Program-made: the position numbers and the translations under genes
The notes under the pieces: model-generated
The model's input: only the letters and a program-made list of their open reading frames with translations
The model's database searches: none
Told to the model about the DNA's origin: nothing
Source of the DNA: a virus
DNA length: 64,000 bases
Reading direction: 5' to 3' (one strand)
Virus record (IMG/VR): IMGVR_UViG_3300025645_000061
Location: 4,429-68,428 of that record
Shown: positions 1,265-8,985 of the stretch, one piece after another
Numbering within the stretch: the stretch's first letter is position 1
Layout: every line of letters starts with the position of its first letter

Positions 1265-3046
1265 ATGGCAATAGCAACAGACATTGCAATTGATGGCACA
1301 GGAGCTATCTACTATAAAGGGGCTGTGCATGGTGCGGCTGGAGCCGGCTACTACACAGTAATTGAACTTCATAGATTTGTACAAGATTTAGCAGATGATG
1401 CTACTGCTGCTGGTGATGATCTTATTGATATCACAAGCACAACACCTTCCGACAGATCAACAGATAACATTATCTCTATCCTTACGGGTTACTTACTAGA
1501 TGATACTAACGGTGCTGCTACAGACCCTATTACAGAACACTTGTATGATGGTTCTATTATTGAAGCAGACGGTACTATCTATGATGGTGTCGTGGTTATT
1601 GCTGGCGAAGGTATGGATTTGCAGATTATGCAAAACGGTGCTCAACTAGCCAATGACTACTGGAATACTATTCCGGATGGTCAGACTACCCCCGGTCTCA
1701 ATAGAGATACAGCAAACGGTATCTCTCATAGATTTATGATTGAAGTGAACACTGCTGGCACACCTATTGACGGTAGACGTTTGATTGGTATGACTCGTGT
1801 TGACTTCTCTACAGACACAGTAGATGGTAAGACATTCTCAGAGTTTAAGATTAACGGTACTGCTCGTGGCAATAACGTGATGGCTCTGACTTTTGCGAAT
1901 GACTTGAATGATACGTCATCTGCTGCTGCATTCTCCACTATCGCTAACATCAAAGAAGGTTATAATCTTTTAGATGTAAACAATGATACAGTAAACGAAG
2001 CATACTACTCACAGTGGAACAGAGATTCTTACACTATTAACCAATTCTACCAGAGAATGAAGTATTTGTCTCGTGGTGCTGCGGATAACGTAGGTACTCT
2101 TTACGGTATTGATGCTAAAATCTTCCGTGGTATTACACACGAAGTAGCTCTTACTGATCTAACAACTGGTATTTGGGTTGAACCTGAAGCATTGTCTTGG
2201 GGTACAGGCGCAACTGCTGGTACTGGACAATTACTTGCTATTGATAATACTGCTAGTGGTTCTGCTACTAAGTTATGGATGCAAATCCTAACAGGTGTTG
2301 CTCCAAATGCTAACACTATTACAAGTGCTACAAACGGTGCTACAGCAACAGCCGGTACAGTTGTAGAGCGTACAATCTCTACTCCTTTTGTTGGTGTATC
2401 AACTGGTACTTCACTTATTGGTTCATATGGTTTAGGTCTAGAAACAGCAGACCTAAGTTCTACAGATAAAGTGTTCGACTTAACAAATACACAGATTACA
2501 CCACCTAACAATGTAACATTTACAGTGTCTGGTATTGTGTCTGGTGAAGATAGAGTCCTAGTTGGCCCTGATACAGGTGCTACTGCTCTTGCTGATGGTC
2601 AGTTCTTAGTAAGTACAGCTATTACAGGTGCTTCTACTTCACTTATTGTTAAAGTTGGTACAGAAACCCCCGGTACTGGTACTAACTCAGCTACTGATAC
2701 ACCTAATACTGGTACTATCCGTATCCAAGAAGATACTACAGGTATTTTCCAGCGTGTTGCTTATACTGGCTTTACAGTTGGTGCTGGTATTATGACCTTC
2801 ACTGGTATTTCTGGCCCACCTATTGCCTCTATCAACAACAAAGTGTTCATCAGTTATATTGATACACTTGCAGGGGGTACTTCTGTAGCTTACTCTTCTG
2901 TTTATGTTGCAGATAGAGATGTATTTGTAAGGGTTCGTGATTCTGGTACTGCTGGTGATGGGTTTAGTATTAAGACTTTTGAAACCAAAGGTACAGTAGG
3001 CTCAAACGGCGGATCAACATCTGCTATTAGAACCTCTGACGAATAA
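1265..3046 (+). CDS. Virion structural protein; putative major fibre/filament subunit (593 aa)
   Basis: G/T/A-rich beta protein; N-domain shared with ORF 5055, C-domain shared with ORF 3086. Confidence 0.6.
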   Translation: MAIATDIAIDGTGAIYYKGAVHGAAGAGYYTVIELHRFVQDLADDATAAGDDLIDITSTTPSDRSTDNIISILTGYLLDDTNGAATDPITEHLYDGSIIEADGTIYDGVVVIAGEGMDLQIMQNGAQLANDYWNTIPDGQTTPGLNRDTANGISHRFMIEVNTAGTPIDGRRLIGMTRVDFSTDTVDGKTFSEFKINGTARGNNVMALTFANDLNDTSSAAAFSTIANIKEGYNLLDVNNDTVNEAYYSQWNRDSYTINQFYQRMKYLSRGAADNVGTLYGIDAKIFRGITHEVALTDLTTGIWVEPEALSWGTGATAGTGQLLAIDNTASGSATKLWMQILTGVAPNANTITSATNGATATAGTVVERTISTPFVGVSTGTSLIGSYGLGLETADLSSTDKVFDLTNTQITPPNNVTFTVSGIVSGEDRVLVGPDTGATALADGQFLVSTAITGASTSLIVKVGTETPGTGTNSATDTPNTGTIRIQEDTTGIFQRVAYTGFTVGAGIMTFTGISGPPIASINNKVFISYIDTLAGGTSVAYSSVYVADRDVFVRVRDSGTAGDGFSIKTFETKGTVGSNGGSTSAIRTSDE

Positions 3047-3085
3047 TAGAGTCCTCATAGGGGTAAATTTAAGAGAGGTTAATAG

Positions 3086-4855
3086 ATGACAGTTACAGTT
3101 ACTTGGGATGGCACTAATGGTGCTGGTGGTGATGGTGTTATTGATACCGCAGATAACGTAGGTAACTGGACTGCTATTAAAATTACTTCTGGTGGTCAAG
3201 CACCAACTGCTGTAGCTGCTGATGCTGCTTATGAAGGCACTAACAATGTTACCTGTCGATCTGATAACAAACGTGTATATATGTATACAGATATTGGAGT
3301 GGGTAACGAGTTAAACTTTACAGGTGGTGGTAACGCTGAAGGGGAGTTGATCTATATTTGGGTCAACTTCCTAGCAAGCTCTCTCTTGGGAACACAAGCT
3401 GCGGGTTCATTAGGTGTTTTTCTTGAATCATCTACACCTTCCTCTACTCAATACCACTTGTGGTACTTCTATGGGGCTGATAACTACACTGGTGGTTGGA
3501 AAAGGCTTGTACTAGATCCCACTAAGACAGTATCCGCTTCAAGCGGAACAGCTATTGACCTAACATCTGTTCGTTATATTGGGGCATTTGCACAAACAGT
3601 GGCTACTGCTAAGTTCGATAACTTTGTTGTTGACCAGTGTGCGGTTGGTAAGGGTATTAAAGTTACAGGTTCCTCAACATTAGGTTTGATGGAAGAGCTT
3701 CTGGCAAATGAAGAAGCTAATAGGTATGGGGTTTTAACCGCCCTAAATGACTCAGGAACAGCGTATCAATTATCGGGTAGATTAACTCTCGGAGATAATG
3801 TTGGTGTTCTTGCTTCAAATATCACAGATGAAGATTCAAAAATCTTCCTTGCTGAACCCCTTTACTATCAAGGTGCTGTTTTGGCGGCTGCTCCGTTAAC
3901 TTATACGGGGTTGGATATTGTAGGTAATGCTACTGGAGCTACAGATGTATCTCTTGGACAGCAAGTAGGGACTACTCAAGGGCGAAACGGAATATCTATA
4001 ATAGGAAATGACACCTATACTATGGATTTGGACACTGATGATACCGCTGTGGAATCTTCCGATTTCTTCGGGTGTACCTTAGAAAATATCACTGGTACTC
4101 TAAACATAGATGGTAATCATAATTTTGATTCTGTTACGATGGTTTCATGTTCTATATTGAATGTTGCAACAGGGATGACCATCAACAACCTATCTTCTGT
4201 AAATAGTGGTCAAATTATACTTACAGGTTTGGCAGCTCTTGTTGATAGTTTGGTGGTTAACAATGTAGCAACAGTGGCTATTACCGTAGCTGATCTAGGA
4301 CAATTGACTAATTGTAGGTTTACCTCTGATGGAACAGGACATGCAGTAGATTTAGGTACAATCTCTGTAACAGACACTATGTCTTGGAATAACACCGACA
4401 CAGGTTATGCTGGTACAAATGGAGCTACAGGCAACGAGACAATTCTTGTAAATGTAGCTACAAGCCAAACGCTAACAATCAATGTAGGTAGTGGGTACTC
4501 CACACCAACGATATATAACACCGGAGCTGGTACTGTTTCTGTTGTATCTGGACAGGTGACGTTAACTATCACTGTTAGAGACATTAATGATGCTACCTTA
4601 TTAGAAAATGCAAGAGTTTATGTTACAGCAGCGGCTGGCGGCTCATTAACTGTTGGTACGGTTATTATAGATAAAGCTTTAACCAACGTTAGTGGTGTTG
4701 TAACTGACACTAGGAGTTATTCAACAGATCAACCTATTGAAGGTGTTGTACGATTTAGCACATCTCCTAATTTCTACAAGACTTCCCCGATATCTGGTAC
4801 TGTAAATAATGCCAGTGGATTATCACTAAATATACAAATGATTAAGGATGTGTAA
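3086..4855 (+). CDS. Virion structural protein; putative fibre tip/adhesin (lectin-like N-domain, beta-helix, Ig-like C-domain)
   Basis: GGWKRLVLDP...FDNFVVD jelly-roll-like segment, beta-helix-like middle, C-domain paralogous to ORF 1265. Confidence 0.55.
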   Translation: MTVTVTWDGTNGAGGDGVIDTADNVGNWTAIKITSGGQAPTAVAADAAYEGTNNVTCRSDNKRVYMYTDIGVGNELNFTGGGNAEGELIYIWVNFLASSLLGTQAAGSLGVFLESSTPSSTQYHLWYFYGADNYTGGWKRLVLDPTKTVSASSGTAIDLTSVRYIGAFAQTVATAKFDNFVVDQCAVGKGIKVTGSSTLGLMEELLANEEANRYGVLTALNDSGTAYQLSGRLTLGDNVGVLASNITDEDSKIFLAEPLYYQGAVLAAAPLTYTGLDIVGNATGATDVSLGQQVGTTQGRNGISIIGNDTYTMDLDTDDTAVESSDFFGCTLENITGTLNIDGNHNFDSVTMVSCSILNVATGMTINNLSSVNSGQIILTGLAALVDSLVVNNVATVAITVADLGQLTNCRFTSDGTGHAVDLGTISVTDTMSWNNTDTGYAGTNGATGNETILVNVATSQTLTINVGSGYSTPTIYNTGAGTVSVVSGQVTLTITVRDINDATLLENARVYVTAAAGGSLTVGTVIIDKALTNVSGVVTDTRSYSTDQPIEGVVRFSTSPNFYKTSPISGTVNNASGLSLNIQMIKDV

Positions 4856-5055
4856 TGTCGGACAGTATGGAACAAAGAAACATACTAACTCTCCACGAGG
4901 TTATTAAAGAACAAAGAACCAAAATTAATGATCTTATAATAGGGTTACAAACTACTAATAATAATATAGCTATCCTTCAGGCAGACTTACAAAATACCAA
5001 ACAGATGATTGCTGTACTTAAGGGTATAGGGATGGGGAGTACGGTGCATAATTAA
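4855..5055 (+). CDS. Small coiled-coil protein, translationally coupled within the fibre cassette
   Basis: TAATG overlaps on both sides; heptad pattern. Confidence 0.65.
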   Translation: MSDSMEQRNILTLHEVIKEQRTKINDLIIGLQTTNNNIAILQADLQNTKQMIAVLKGIGMGSTVHN

Positions 5056-6803
5056 TGGCTATCTCGATTGATTGGGGGCAGCGAATTATTAATATTCCTA
5101 GAGCTGATATGTCTCTGGTTCAATCAGTCCCCACAGAGATCAGACAGCTTAATTTAGACACATTCAGAAGAACTCTTAAAGATTTAGAAGATGATCCAGA
5201 GGGAATGCCCTTTCCAAATACACACAACCACAATACTACAGTGGAAGTAGGAGGGGTTCTTCTTTCTCGTGTTATAGAAATTATTAATGGATACAGTATT
5301 ACTTTTGAAGACGGTCAATATGCTGTTAACTTAGTTGGTGCTAATTCTAATGTAGGGGATGTTGTTAACGTAAACCAAGTATCTGTGAGGTCTGCTAATT
5401 CAGCCGGTCTACAGGATTTGTCTACATTACTTTCCTCTGCATATCAAGGTAAAGTTGTACTAGATATAATAAGAGGACAGGCGGGTACAGATGTACCTAT
5501 TGGAACCTTATTTAGTCCGAGTAATAACGCTATACAGGCTATTCAGATAGCAGATAATCAAGGTATTGATATCATAAGTGTTACTGGAGACTACACCTTT
5601 GACACTGGACACGACATAAGCAATAAGCGGGTAGAAGGTCAAAACATGACCTTGAGCACAATTATAATAGAACCGGGAGCCAATGCTTTACAGTGTGAGT
5701 TCTCTGAATGTCACTTACAAGGTACTCTTGATGGTGGGTCTACTGTAGAAAGGAGTCTAATCACTACATTAAATTATGTAGATGGCTTCCTACATGAGTG
5801 TGTTCTATCAGCAGGGTTAATTACATTAGGAAATAATGCAGTTGCTTACTTTCTACATTGTTACTCAGGTATTCCGGGGGTTGGTACTCCAACAATAGAT
5901 ATGGGGGGTACTGGACAGTCCTTGGCTATGAGAGGGTACAGTGGCGGTATACAGCTTAGAAATAAAACTGGGCCAGAGTCTGTATCTATTGATTTACAAT
6001 CTGGTAAGGTTATCTTAGAAAACACAGTTGTAGCAGGAACTATTGTTGTTAGAGGTGATGGTAAGCTAACAGATATCAATGGTAATCACTTATTCTCTGG
6101 AACATGGAATGGTGGAGTTACTATAATCAATGAAACAACCAGTATGCTTCACGACCACACCTTAGAGTCTATTGCGGGTGCAGTATGGGATGAACGCTTA
6201 ACAGGTGCTACCCACAACATCCCAACATCAGCAGGAAGAAGATTACGAGAATCCTCATCACAAGTAATCACAACAGGGACAGCGATTGGTTCAGGGACAG
6301 GCAGTAACCAGATACAATTAAACGGTGACGCAAGTACAATTGATAATGCATACGATCCCGCCTCTGTATCTATTGTTGGTGGCACTGGCTTTGGTCAATC
6401 TAGGGGAATCATACAATATGAAGGTTCTATTAAGTTAGCTACAGTAGATAGAAACTGGAAGGTAAACCCTGATAATACATCTGAATATGTTATTTTTGGA
6501 TGGGTTGGCAGAGAGCATGTAAATGAAGGTTTGGCACAAGCTGGCACTGCTAATACAATTACACTAAACTCTTTAGCTAGTTCGTCAAATGACGTTTACA
6601 TTGGTCAGCTTGTATTTATTAGATCAGGAACAGGTGACGATCAAGTGGGCAATGTTATTGCCTATGATGGGACAACTAAGATAGCAACTGTAGCTCATAA
6701 TTGGGCTGTAACACCTGATTCAACTAGCGGGTACGCTATGCTTCCTTTACAGAGTAGTAATGACTTAGTAGCAGAGGCTGTCTGGACATATACGAGGCCA
6801 TAA
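5055..6803 (+). CDS. Virion structural protein; putative fibre base/anchor subunit
   Basis: N-domain paralogous to ORF 1265; beta-helix; two tandem ~72-aa C-terminal repeats; two AVW motifs. Confidence 0.55.
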   Translation: MAISIDWGQRIINIPRADMSLVQSVPTEIRQLNLDTFRRTLKDLEDDPEGMPFPNTHNHNTTVEVGGVLLSRVIEIINGYSITFEDGQYAVNLVGANSNVGDVVNVNQVSVRSANSAGLQDLSTLLSSAYQGKVVLDIIRGQAGTDVPIGTLFSPSNNAIQAIQIADNQGIDIISVTGDYTFDTGHDISNKRVEGQNMTLSTIIIEPGANALQCEFSECHLQGTLDGGSTVERSLITTLNYVDGFLHECVLSAGLITLGNNAVAYFLHCYSGIPGVGTPTIDMGGTGQSLAMRGYSGGIQLRNKTGPESVSIDLQSGKVILENTVVAGTIVVRGDGKLTDINGNHLFSGTWNGGVTIINETTSMLHDHTLESIAGAVWDERLTGATHNIPTSAGRRLRESSSQVITTGTAIGSGTGSNQIQLNGDASTIDNAYDPASVSIVGGTGFGQSRGIIQYEGSIKLATVDRNWKVNPDNTSEYVIFGWVGREHVNEGLAQAGTANTITLNSLASSSNDVYIGQLVFIRSGTGDDQVGNVIAYDGTTKIATVAHNWAVTPDSTSGYAMLPLQSSNDLVAEAVWTYTRP

Positions 6804-6805
6804 CT

Positions 6806-7087
6806 ATGGACGCTTGGAACACCATGTTATCCACAAGTACAGCATCTTCTGGTGCTGATGCTTGGGTACATCTAAACAGTCAAGGGATTGGAGGGGGGTT
6901 TATAACTATCCCCGTATTATCTGAAATAAACATAGAAGTCTCAGGAATGGAAACTATTGCAGTTAATATTGCTGAAGAAAAGAAGATTCCTATTCTTATT
7001 AACGATAATACTATCTCAGTAAAAGACTCAGAATCAGAGATATCCGTATTTAAAAACAACACAACAATACCAATAATCAAATGCTAA
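6806..7087 (+). CDS. Hypothetical protein of the fibre cassette
   Basis: Tightly packed ORF with a repeated DAW motif. Confidence 0.55.
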   Translation: MDAWNTMLSTSTASSGADAWVHLNSQGIGGGFITIPVLSEINIEVSGMETIAVNIAEEKKIPILINDNTISVKDSESEISVFKNNTTIPIIKC

Positions 7088-7102
7088 AGGAGTATTAATT
7101 AA

Positions 7103-7480
7103 GTGGATTGGAGATATGATAATTCTACCGACTCCTTCAGTTTAGACATTGGGGAGTTTATATCAGCTAGAGGAATATTAATTGCTGACATTACTGAAGC
7201 AATCTATATGGTTAAAGCTTCTAGATCAGATACAGACTTAGCGGCTCTAGCCACACTTACCATAGGCGATGGTATTACTAAAGTTGCTGCCTCTGGAACA
7301 GAACCTGACAAACTTACTATCAAGTTTAGAGAAGCAGATTTTGGAGTAGGGTTCTTAGAAACAGATGCCCCACAATATTACACTGGAGCTGGGATTAAAA
7401 TTGCAGGGTACACAAAGTACGTTGAAATGGACTTAGCTGATAACAGGCTAGTGATAATCCCTGATTTTATACACGATTAA
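7103..7480 (+). CDS. Ig/BppU-N-like beta-sandwich adaptor (putative)
   Basis: AAGGAG RBS, GTG start; alternating beta pattern resembling fibre attachment domains (inference). Confidence 0.45.
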   Translation: MDWRYDNSTDSFSLDIGEFISARGILIADITEAIYMVKASRSDTDLAALATLTIGDGITKVAASGTEPDKLTIKFREADFGVGFLETDAPQYYTGAGIKIAGYTKYVEMDLADNRLVIIPDFIHD

Positions 7481-7554: not shown

Positions 7555-8985
7555 ATGGCTAAGAAGCAATATGGCCCTGCATCACTAAAGCAGGAAATGT
7601 ATGTAAACTCTAATGCAACTATCACCGTTTTTGGTGGTGCTGCTGGTAGTGGCAAATCTTATATGGGTCTTATGGACTTACTTAAGTGGGTACACATGCC
7701 ATCATTTCGTGGTGTTGTTTTCAGACGTACTACTCCCCAACTTAAAGGTGTTGGTGGTATGTGGGATACAGCCCAAGAGATGTATACAGAGTTATTTCCT
7801 AAATTACAGGTAGCATCCAAAGATAGTAAAATAACGTTTCCATCTAAAGCTCAGATTATGATGAAACACATGGAACACGTTAAAGATAAATTTAACATCC
7901 AAGGATGGCAGATATCAGAAGCACTTGTAGATGAAGCTTGTCAGTTTGAAGAAGAACAGATTATGTATATCATATCTCGCCTTCGTAACACTACTGAAAA
8001 AGACTTTAAATCTCACCTTAAAATGACTTGCAACCCCGATTACGATTCTTTCTTAAGAGTATGGCTAGAGAAAGCACAATACTTAGACAAAGAGGGTTTT
8101 CCTATTGAAGAACGTTGTGGGAAGTTAGTTTATTGTGGGCAGGTATCAGGTGGTATGGAGTTTGAACAATCCCTAGAAGATTGGGAAGAAAAATACCCAA
8201 AATCTACACCTTTAACCTTTTGCTTTATTAATGCTACTTGCAAAGATAACCCTATCCTTCTTGAAATGGAACCAGATTATCTTTCTAAACTAGAAAACTT
8301 ACCTAGAGTAGAATGTGATAGGTTGTTACACGGAAACTGGTATGCTCGTGAAGAAGCATCTGGTTACTGGAAAAGAGAGTGGTGTGGAGACCCCATATCG
8401 CTATACCAAATCCCACAAGGGCTTAGAACAGTTCGTAGTTGGGATATGGCAGCTACACTACCTTCAGAGATATACCCTGACCCCGATTTTACAGTTGGTA
8501 TTAAAGGTTGTGTTGATGGGGAAGGTACAGTGTACATAATGGACGTTAAGAGGTTCAGAGAAAGACCAGCCGGAGTTATTGATAAAGTATTAGGCTCTGG
8601 TTTAACCGATGGACAGGATTGCACTATAACAATCCCGAAAGACCCCGGTGCTGCTGGCAAGGCTGCTGCTGATAATGTAACTTCTAAATGCTTTGAAGCT
8701 GGATTTACATGCAGACAGAAACAAACAAAAACAGGTAAAGATAAAAGATTTGAACCTGTAGCTGCATTAGCAGAAAACGGAATGATTAAAATAGTTAAAG
8801 GGGATTGGAATAAAATATTTCATGATGAACTTGAGGCTTTTGGATCAGGAAGAGGACACGATGATATCGTTGATGCTATAGCCGATTTAGTGCATGAACT
8901 ATGTCAAAGAACAGCAATACCAAGCTTCTCTTGTCCAGATGGACTTTTACAGACAAACCCATTTAATAACCCCTTGAGGATTTAA
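7555..8985 (+). CDS. terL: Terminase large subunit
   Basis: Walker A GGAAGSGKS, Walker B LVDE, TCNP coupling motif, nuclease SWDMA and HDDIVDA. Confidence 0.95.
   Translation: MAKKQYGPASLKQEMYVNSNATITVFGGAAGSGKSYMGLMDLLKWVHMPSFRGVVFRRTTPQLKGVGGMWDTAQEMYTELFPKLQVASKDSKITFPSKAQIMMKHMEHVKDKFNIQGWQISEALVDEACQFEEEQIMYIISRLRNTTEKDFKSHLKMTCNPDYDSFLRVWLEKAQYLDKEGFPIEERCGKLVYCGQVSGGMEFEQSLEDWEEKYPKSTPLTFCFINATCKDNPILLEMEPDYLSKLENLPRVECDRLLHGNWYAREEASGYWKREWCGDPISLYQIPQGLRTVRSWDMAATLPSEIYPDPDFTVGIKGCVDGEGTVYIMDVKRFRERPAGVIDKVLGSGLTDGQDCTITIPKDPGAAGKAAADNVTSKCFEAGFTCRQKQTKTGKDKRFEPVAALAENGMIKIVKGDWNKIFHDELEAFGSGRGHDDIVDAIADLVHELCQRTAIPSFSCPDGLLQTNPFNNPLRI

Follow-up and report, generated by a model that had tools for sequence, protein, structure and literature searches.

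A portable gene cassette upstream of terL in a myovirus contig and its link to the horn and knob genes of phage Syn5

Why would a phage with a complete contractile tail, two fibres included, carry beside its terminase gene a further operon of three large proteins without a match in Pfam or PHROG? The question is raised by a stretch of 64,000 nucleotides (hereafter the window), positions 4,429 to 68,428 of the IMG/VR virus record IMGVR_UViG_3300025645_000061, a 68.4-kb viral contig with a CheckV completeness of 76%. Six open reading frames (ORFs) between positions 1265 and 7480 precede terL, and they and all their domains described below lie on the plus strand. A preliminary description, made from the letters alone, had listed these ORFs, and the sizes and coordinates that it gave were exact: 593, 589, 66, 582, 93 and 125 amino acids (aa), followed by terL. 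It had also set the operon apart from a tail module that already holds two fibres, which we confirm. Furthermore, it had proposed that the three proteins of ≈590 aa are built as A-B (ORF1265), X-B (ORF3086) and A-Y (ORF5055), with an N-terminal domain A and a C-terminal domain B shared among them.

The reading that we favour, with roughly even confidence, is that the region constitutes a portable, self-contained cassette for a virion appendage, of the same kind as the gene 53–55 (horn and knob) cassette of cyanophage Syn5, consisting of a core protein and two exchangeable spikes joined by adaptors, and probably associated with the head. The gene set is conserved and mobile among phages that otherwise have little in common, the body of ORF5055 is predicted to have a tailspike fold, and its N-terminal domain matches Syn5 gp55.

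Gene set and its spread

The product of terL (7555..8985) matched Terminase_6N and Terminase_6C in Pfam and phrog_979 at an expectation value (E) of 1.7e-166, and is ≈47% identical to TerL of Pakpunavirus-like Pseudomonas myoviruses. The cassette ends just upstream of this gene, and Pfam and PHROG scans placed a Mu-type portal gene after it. Genes for the major head protein, sheath, tape measure, hub, wedge and two canonical tail fibres follow at 12–27.5 kb, and the contractile-tail module at 15–27.5 kb is complete, both canonical fibres included. In the one relative inspected, Pseudomonas phage vB_PseuGesM_254, a tRNA array and not the cassette operon lies upstream of terL. Since the phage has its own tail module with two fibres, and the relative lacks the operon at terL, the operon is an extra module.

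A total of 310 viral loci were found, 80 of which were kept for locus analysis; domains were counted in the 52 loci that had at least 6 kb of downstream sequence. The gene order was conserved in the 80 loci, with an ORF1265 homolog followed by a protein that has B at its end, frequently the 66-aa protein or its homolog, and a protein that opens with A. The A domain of ORF5055 was present in 50 of the 52 loci and the B domain of ORF3086 in 43, while the variable bodies were rarer (10 loci for the N-terminal part of ORF3086, 30 for the middle of ORF5055). These counts bear out the earlier suggestion that the three proteins form one functional unit. The 66-aa protein (4855..5055) is a conserved fourth member of the cassette: in 23 of 55 loci, the X-B and A-Y genes are separated by a single small ORF, and homologs of the 66-aa protein fill 22 of these 23 slots (jackhmmer, E ≤ 2.5e-13), including that of locus L089 from the candidate phyla radiation (CPR).

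Only 5 of the 80 loci had a detectable counterpart of the TerL of the window. The placement of the cassette also varies: it lies beside terL in the window and in locus L063, after capsid and connector genes in L036 and L067, and after tail genes in L013. The phages that carry it differ in their terminase, portal and capsid families and in tail type; a sheath gene was found in one of five records, and a genome that is 95% complete (G004) has none. The conserved pieces thus travel together, independent of any particular virion.

A scan of prokaryote genomes gave 11 loci, seven of them in metagenome-assembled genomes (MAGs) of Patescibacteria. Locus L084 is a phage contig and L086 a prophage-like region. 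In L089 and L090, the full cassette (ORF1265 homolog, X-B, small ORF and A-Y) is found amid cellular genes. The Patescibacteria neighbours include TatC, DnaJ and a Mur ligase, with TatC directly downstream in L089, and none of the 10 neighbours tested at the cellular cassette was a phage hallmark gene. Since the cassette occurs both in unrelated phages and in Patescibacteria, the conserved partners must lie within the cassette.

These cellular copies raise the question of whether the products belong to a virion at all. They might instead form a self-assembling complex that is released at lysis or displayed on the cell surface, such as a free glycan-degrading or adhesive assembly. A complete cassette next to TatC and away from phage hallmarks would suit such a complex, as would the many invariant His, Asp, Arg and Asn residues of ORF1265 and the small membrane-type proteins, putatively involved in lysis, that are encoded just upstream of the cassette in the window. 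However, none of the N-termini of the three large proteins looks like a signal peptide when the sequences are read by eye, without a predictor. In phages, the cassette sits amid head and packaging genes, and Syn5 gp53, gp54 and gp58 are annotated as structural proteins. We therefore consider a non-virion complex very unlikely.

The Patescibacteria cassettes differ from that of the window in having an enlarged ORF1265 homolog with extra copies of a small barrel, and no virion is encoded nearby. In the MAG contigs L087–L090, L092 and L093, these homologs reach 713–959 aa; the barrel (model positions ≈285–346) occurs two to four times, and ≈160–300 residues are inserted after position ≈260. A permuted order was observed in L086 (8101–12835), on a closed Thermodesulfobacteriota chromosome, where X-B is followed by the ORF1265 homolog, a 133-aa ORF and an A-only protein of 187 aa; this region also contains a tail tube gene.

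The three large proteins and their shared ends

ORF1265 (1265..3046, 593 aa) is the conserved core protein of the cassette. It has 3,728 homologs; among the 120 matches listed, identities range from 54 to 96% and nearly all are full length. The family is strongly conserved, with many invariant polar residues. The AlphaFold2 (AF2) model is all-beta and multidomain, with a mean predicted local distance difference test (pLDDT) score of 80.9 and a predicted template modelling (pTM) score of 0.69, the latter suggesting a compact protein. An A-like motif of helix, acidic loop and strand at residues 31–82 (1355..1510) gives the profile match to the N-domain of ORF5055 described below; in the model, it comprises a helix (32–44) and a disordered stretch (45–66). 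A small beta-barrel follows at residues 289–369 (2129..2371), and the C-terminal beta-sandwich, B-like, spans residues 415–593 (2507..3043) as two segments, 415–444 and 532–593, with a barrel inserted at 445–531. Structural matches to the individual domains were all weak, the barrels having a weak resemblance to tail-tip proteins. ORF1265 had no match in Pfam, PHROG or PDB sequences, and profile searches of PDB sequences with profiles A1 (ORF1265), A2 and A3 gave no matches at E ≤ 1. A search of the ESM Atlas with ORF1265 was likewise empty, the best score being 0.75, and neither ORF1265 nor ORF3086 matched cultured phages by tblastn.

ORF3086 (3086..4855, 589 aa), the X-B protein, is a mosaic. 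Its N-terminal part (residues 1–370) and C-terminal part (345–588) are found separately in other proteins (1,182 representative matches). The conserved C-terminal domain B (residues 489–589; 4550..4852) is encoded just before the A-domain gene wherever it is present. The ESM Atlas contained only unnamed viral clusters for ORF3086, and no Atlas structures. Lenient scans with the terminal domains and with small A-only and B-only proteins yielded nothing usable, with only sub-threshold immunoglobulin-like hints for B.

ORF5055 (5055..6803, 582 aa), the A-Y protein, starts with the conserved domain A (residues 1–113; 5055..5393). In the predicted structure, the body is a right-handed parallel beta-helix, and the model most resembles the baseplate-anchored tail fibre PDB 9rkv, so that ORF5055 is, as modeled, a tailspike-type beta-helix protein. 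The variable distal end has two repeated beta domains (residues 404–563; 6264..6743) according to the AF2 secondary structure. Residues 496–564 gave the sole tblastn match in cultured phages, a weak one (38% identity, E 6e-6) to a "baseplate structural protein" of Ochrobactrum phage vB_OspM_OC. ORF5055 has no sequence similarity to known phage tailspikes and beta-helix fibres (Agrobacterium phage 7-7-1 gp015, PDB 9rkv; cyanophage Pam1 tailspike, PDB 7eea). Unlike these, it has an N-domain of the gp55 family, not a known baseplate anchor, and its gene is not part of the tail module. Many cassettes have an A-domain protein of only 166–200 aa, consisting of A and a short tail like Syn5 gp55 (for example, L067 13684–14184, L007 15303–15803, L032 15297–15899 and L063 9429–9953), which indicates that the tailspike body is optional.

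Could the cassette then be an accessory set of tail fibres or tailspikes, with ORF1265 serving as a baseplate or neck adaptor that carries two extra receptor-binding spikes? The similarity of ORF5055 to 9rkv, the weak tail-tip likeness of the ORF1265 barrels, the match of the C-terminal repeat to a protein annotated as baseplate, and the position of the cassette behind tail and lysis genes in some phages would all agree with this. However, the tail module of this phage already has its hub, wedge and two fibres, the cassette occurs with unrelated tail types and in tail-less cells, and the sole experimental assignment of a homolog, that of gp55, is to the capsid. We consider this explanation unlikely. 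Branched multi-tailspike systems such as CBA120 TSP1–4, G7C gp63.1 and gp66, and the K1-5/SP6 adaptor are not known to use docking domains other than N-terminal ones, and are attached to the baseplate or tail. The cassette resembles them in having several spikes, exchangeable bodies and conserved terminal docking domains, whereas it differs in that one spike is conserved at its C-terminal domain and that the set includes a large, conserved core protein. There was no family match between the cassette proteins and the domains of these systems in Pfam, PHROG or lenient terminal-domain scans.

The sharing of ends among the three large proteins was not visible by direct comparison. BLASTP found no similarity among them (best E 0.83, 0.37 and 0.11), and whole-length hhalign gave no signal (probabilities of 3% and 0.8%); the top, non-significant match between ORF1265 and ORF3086 was already that of the two extreme C-termini. 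With domain-restricted profiles, hhalign aligned residues 31–82 of ORF1265 with residues 33–86 of ORF5055 at scores of 21.4–28.0 (P 3e-4 to 3.5e-3, probability 9–38%). This alignment was recovered each time and, set against 20 and then 40 foreign segments of 100 residues, was the best in both directions; those without overlap to the partner's N-terminal region scored at most 15.4. The similarity is limited to ≈50 residues (helix, acidic loop and strand) and does not extend to the whole domain; overall, its P ranged from 3e-4 to 8e-3. The AF2 models have the same local order in both proteins: strands, a helix (32–44 in ORF1265, 34–45 in ORF5055), a loop and a strand.

The C-termini were compared after masking the AF2-defined insert of 87 residues (445–531) in ORF1265. 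The remaining residues (415–444 and 532–592) aligned end to end with residues 489–584 of ORF3086 over 80–83 columns, corresponding to a sandwich of ≈95 residues, with scores of 29.6, 25.4 and 26.5 (P 7e-5 to 4e-4, probability 35–62%). All eight mask variants scored at least 22.6, and 28 null constructs scored no higher than 15.9. Among 140 ORF3086-type C-domains, 21 have an insert of 74–86 residues in the same loop as the ORF1265 barrel, giving a bimodal length distribution. The unmasked comparison with these insert-bearing domains was not significant (16.4), and no relation was detectable between the ORF1265 and ORF3086-type inserts (16.1). The penultimate residue is an Asp in 191 of 192 ORF1265-family tails and in 124 of 155 ORF3086-type tails, an independent positional feature that agrees with the C-terminal relationship.

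The domain sharing put forward in the preliminary description survives in reduced form. Profile (hidden Markov model, HMM) comparisons confined to the domains rose above the local nulls, but whole-length comparisons stayed at noise. The N-terminal alignment with ORF5055 was recovered, but as a motif of ≈50 residues that is invisible to BLASTP; the C-terminal match with ORF3086 was the top profile match with the insert masked, and is accompanied by the Asp tail, but fails against the insert-bearing subfamily. We also considered the possibility that the sharing is due to chance or composition, and that these are simply three neighbouring, unrelated fibre-like genes. The noise-level BLASTP and whole-length results, hhalign probabilities that never exceed 62%, and the loss of signal in several profile variants would be expected in that case. 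However, the same alignments were reciprocal best among all segments tested and clear of the nulls, the penultimate Asp is common to both families, and the same design is found in Syn5-type cassettes (see below), making coincidence extremely improbable. Judging from the profile comparisons, the N- and C-terminal relationships are probably real but remote, and the A-B, X-B, A-Y design is probably real as well. No further copies of A or B were found within the 68-kb record.

A complex prediction with full-length ORF1265 and residues 1–115 of ORF5055, run without controls, gave run scores of 0.81, 0.00 and 0.00, with a median below the mark, and speaks neither for nor against binding. A natural fusion was seen in one metagenome protein of 1137 aa (P0391), in which residues 1–552 are ORF1265-like, stopping before the last strands of the C-domain, and residues 569–1136 form a full ORF3086-type protein. 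This is a single sequence on a single contig, and may be an assembly or frameshift artefact.

Partial kinship with the Syn5 horn and knob genes

The Syn5 horn cassette is already known. Genes 53–58 lie directly upstream of terL, and gp53 and gp54 reportedly make up the horn, a structure known since 2007 for which, to our knowledge, there is neither a mechanism nor a function. The N-domain of ORF5055 matched gp55 with an HMM E-value of 8.4e-8, and with hhalign probabilities of 95.7% and 98.5%, the latter with P 3.4e-15 over 90 columns; by these sequence criteria, the two are clearly homologous. Gipson et al. (2014) tentatively assigned gp55, together with gp58, to knobs on the capsid hexamers. 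The homology to gp55 and the position of the Syn5 cassette by terL make a head location of the cassette products plausible by analogy. To this extent, the head attachment suggested in the preliminary description holds up, while the accompanying comparison to flagellotropic phages has no counterpart in the sequence.

In the 29 Syn5-type loci, conservation was found only at the C-terminus of gp54 and the N-terminus of gp55. The N-termini of gp53 and gp55 matched each other by hhalign (84%, P 7.5e-6), and so did the extreme C-termini of gp53 and gp54 (80%, P 1.4e-5), which end in the motif R-x-Y-x-N-P. Each cassette type has its own extreme C-terminal tag that is common to proteins 1 and 2: the penultimate Asp here, and R-x-Y-x-N-P in the Syn5 type. 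The design first noticed in the window recurs in a second cassette family with better statistics, and the observation stands on firmer ground than the window statistics alone would suggest.

The two cassettes have further features in common. Both adjoin terL on its upstream side, at a distance from the genes for the tail; in both, protein 1 has an N-terminus in common with protein 3 and a C-terminus in common with protein 2 (weakly to moderately in the window); and both include small accessory ORFs, a middle protein that is variable except at its C-terminus, and a third that is variable except at its N-terminus. They differ in protein 3, which in Syn5 (gp55) has no more than 156 aa but in the window (ORF5055) includes a full tailspike body, in the sequence of the C-terminal tag, and in the lack of detectable homology between gp53 and gp54 on the one hand and ORF1265 and ORF3086 on the other. 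Moreover, Syn5 is a T7-like podovirus, while the phage in the window is a myovirus.

In the appendage that we propose, the strongly conserved, all-beta ORF1265, bearing one copy each of A and B, would be the common core. A and B would act as adaptor modules that hold the three large proteins in one complex. ORF3086 would contribute an exchangeable N-terminal body on its conserved C-terminal domain of ≈100 residues, and ORF5055 an exchangeable tailspike-type beta-helix behind its conserved N-domain of ≈95–113 residues, with the 66-aa protein as a further part. The bodies X and Y would face outward as swappable parts that bind or cleave glycans, and the conserved flanks would let recombination swap one body for another. 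If Syn5 is a guide, the complex would most likely sit on the capsid rather than on the baseplate. For the contacting surfaces, the stoichiometry and the placement on the virion, we go by inference.

Several results weigh against this reading. By sequence, only one of the three large proteins links the two cassette types: the gp53 family (27 sequences) compared to the ORF1265 family gave a probability of 0.3%, although more distant kinship might escape sequence methods, and the C-terminus of gp54 was colinear with the C-domain of ORF3086 over 80 columns at a P of only 0.0078 and a probability of 5%. The assignment of gp55 to the knobs by Gipson et al. (2014) was made at 4.7 Å without an atomic model. 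The N-terminal similarity of ORF1265 is weak, and merging Syn5-type sequences into the profile lowered its score to 21.4 and then to 18.7. The C-domain match is visible only with the insert masked, and the masked comparison to the masked, insert-bearing ORF3086-type subfamily was not significant (12.5 and 12.9). The many invariant polar residues of ORF1265 could mean that it is an enzyme instead. Finally, Patescibacteria, which have no capsid, retain an A domain that is almost the same (E 7e-61). Anchoring to a capsid leaves this retention unexplained, which weakens a simple capsid-anchor reading and argues that the partner of A lies inside the cassette. In addition, a gp53-family HMM found nothing in the 68-kb record at E ≤ 0.1, and single sequences of Syn5 gp53, gp54, gp57 and gp58 gave nothing significant against the cassette family profiles.

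The preliminary description had gone further and proposed that B plugs into A, such that ORF1265 forms a head-to-tail polymer with X-B as the tip and A-Y as the anchor; as a filament on the head, this would be comparable to the Syn5 horn. The co-varying C-terminal tags do look as plugs for a common socket would. However, A of ORF1265 is a motif of only ≈50 residues that is merged into a larger domain in the model, not a free socket domain, and the pTM of 0.69 suggests a compact protein. The two end roles look reversed, since ORF5055, with its variable tailspike body, is unlikely to be a base anchor. There is no terminator after ORF1265, and hence nothing to suggest that it is made in excess, as a major subunit should be. 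(The 18 promoter-like sites are about as many as chance would give, 20.4, and all seven terminator-like sites lie inside ORFs and none between genes; these scans support no inference on expression.) The pilus logic fares no better: a regular-expression scan of the three large proteins found no LPXTG sorting signal and no sortase or pilin motif. Sortase and chaperone-usher pili also differ in that no N-terminus of the three large proteins looks like a signal peptide, and that no sortase or usher turned up among them in Pfam and PHROG scans. Taken together, polymerisation of ORF1265 appears distinctly unlikely. A broader version would make the matched N-terminal "socket" and C-terminal "plug" a general self-assembly code for phage head appendages, in which protein 1 (ORF1265 or gp53) polymerises into a horn or filament that proteins 2 and 3 end with swappable bodies, and which lets the ultra-small Patescibacteria build a structure on cells without a virion. 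This we regard as speculative and improbable.

Whatever its architecture, the cassette represents an abundant, unannotated gene set that is tied to the Syn5 horn through the gp55-type domain and the shared three-protein design. If the exchangeable bodies of the favoured appendage sit on the capsid and bind or depolymerise glycans, a second system for host recognition, borne on the head and missed by current annotation, may be present in many aquatic phages. We found no description in the literature of the shared-ends design or of the spread of the family (the primary Syn5 papers may hold one), and no report of the tie of ORF1265, ORF3086 and ORF5055 to Syn5 via gp55, of the matched C-terminal tags, or of the 66-aa fourth member.

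Flanking genes

The last two ORFs of the operon, of 93 aa (6806..7087) and 125 aa (7103..7480), had no significant family match in Pfam or PHROG. The only hit for any of the six cassette proteins in these databases was a sub-threshold Pfam match of the 93-aa protein to CoV_NSP15_N, the N-terminal oligomerisation domain of coronavirus NSP15 (E 9e-5, 23 bits compared to a cut-off of 27), which is probably due to chance.

Directly upstream of ORF1265 there is a tRNA-Thr gene with the anticodon TGT (1123–1197, +). It is preceded by two ORFs (122–481 and 673–897, both +) for small proteins with hydrophobic stretches, the first of which has a coiled-coil-like tail; from their sequences, these may be spanin- or holin-like lysis proteins. 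Upstream of the window, an ORF on the minus strand (1431–1757 of contig G000:C1) translates to a repeated peptide unit of 13 residues, suggesting a tandem DNA repeat of ≈39 bp.

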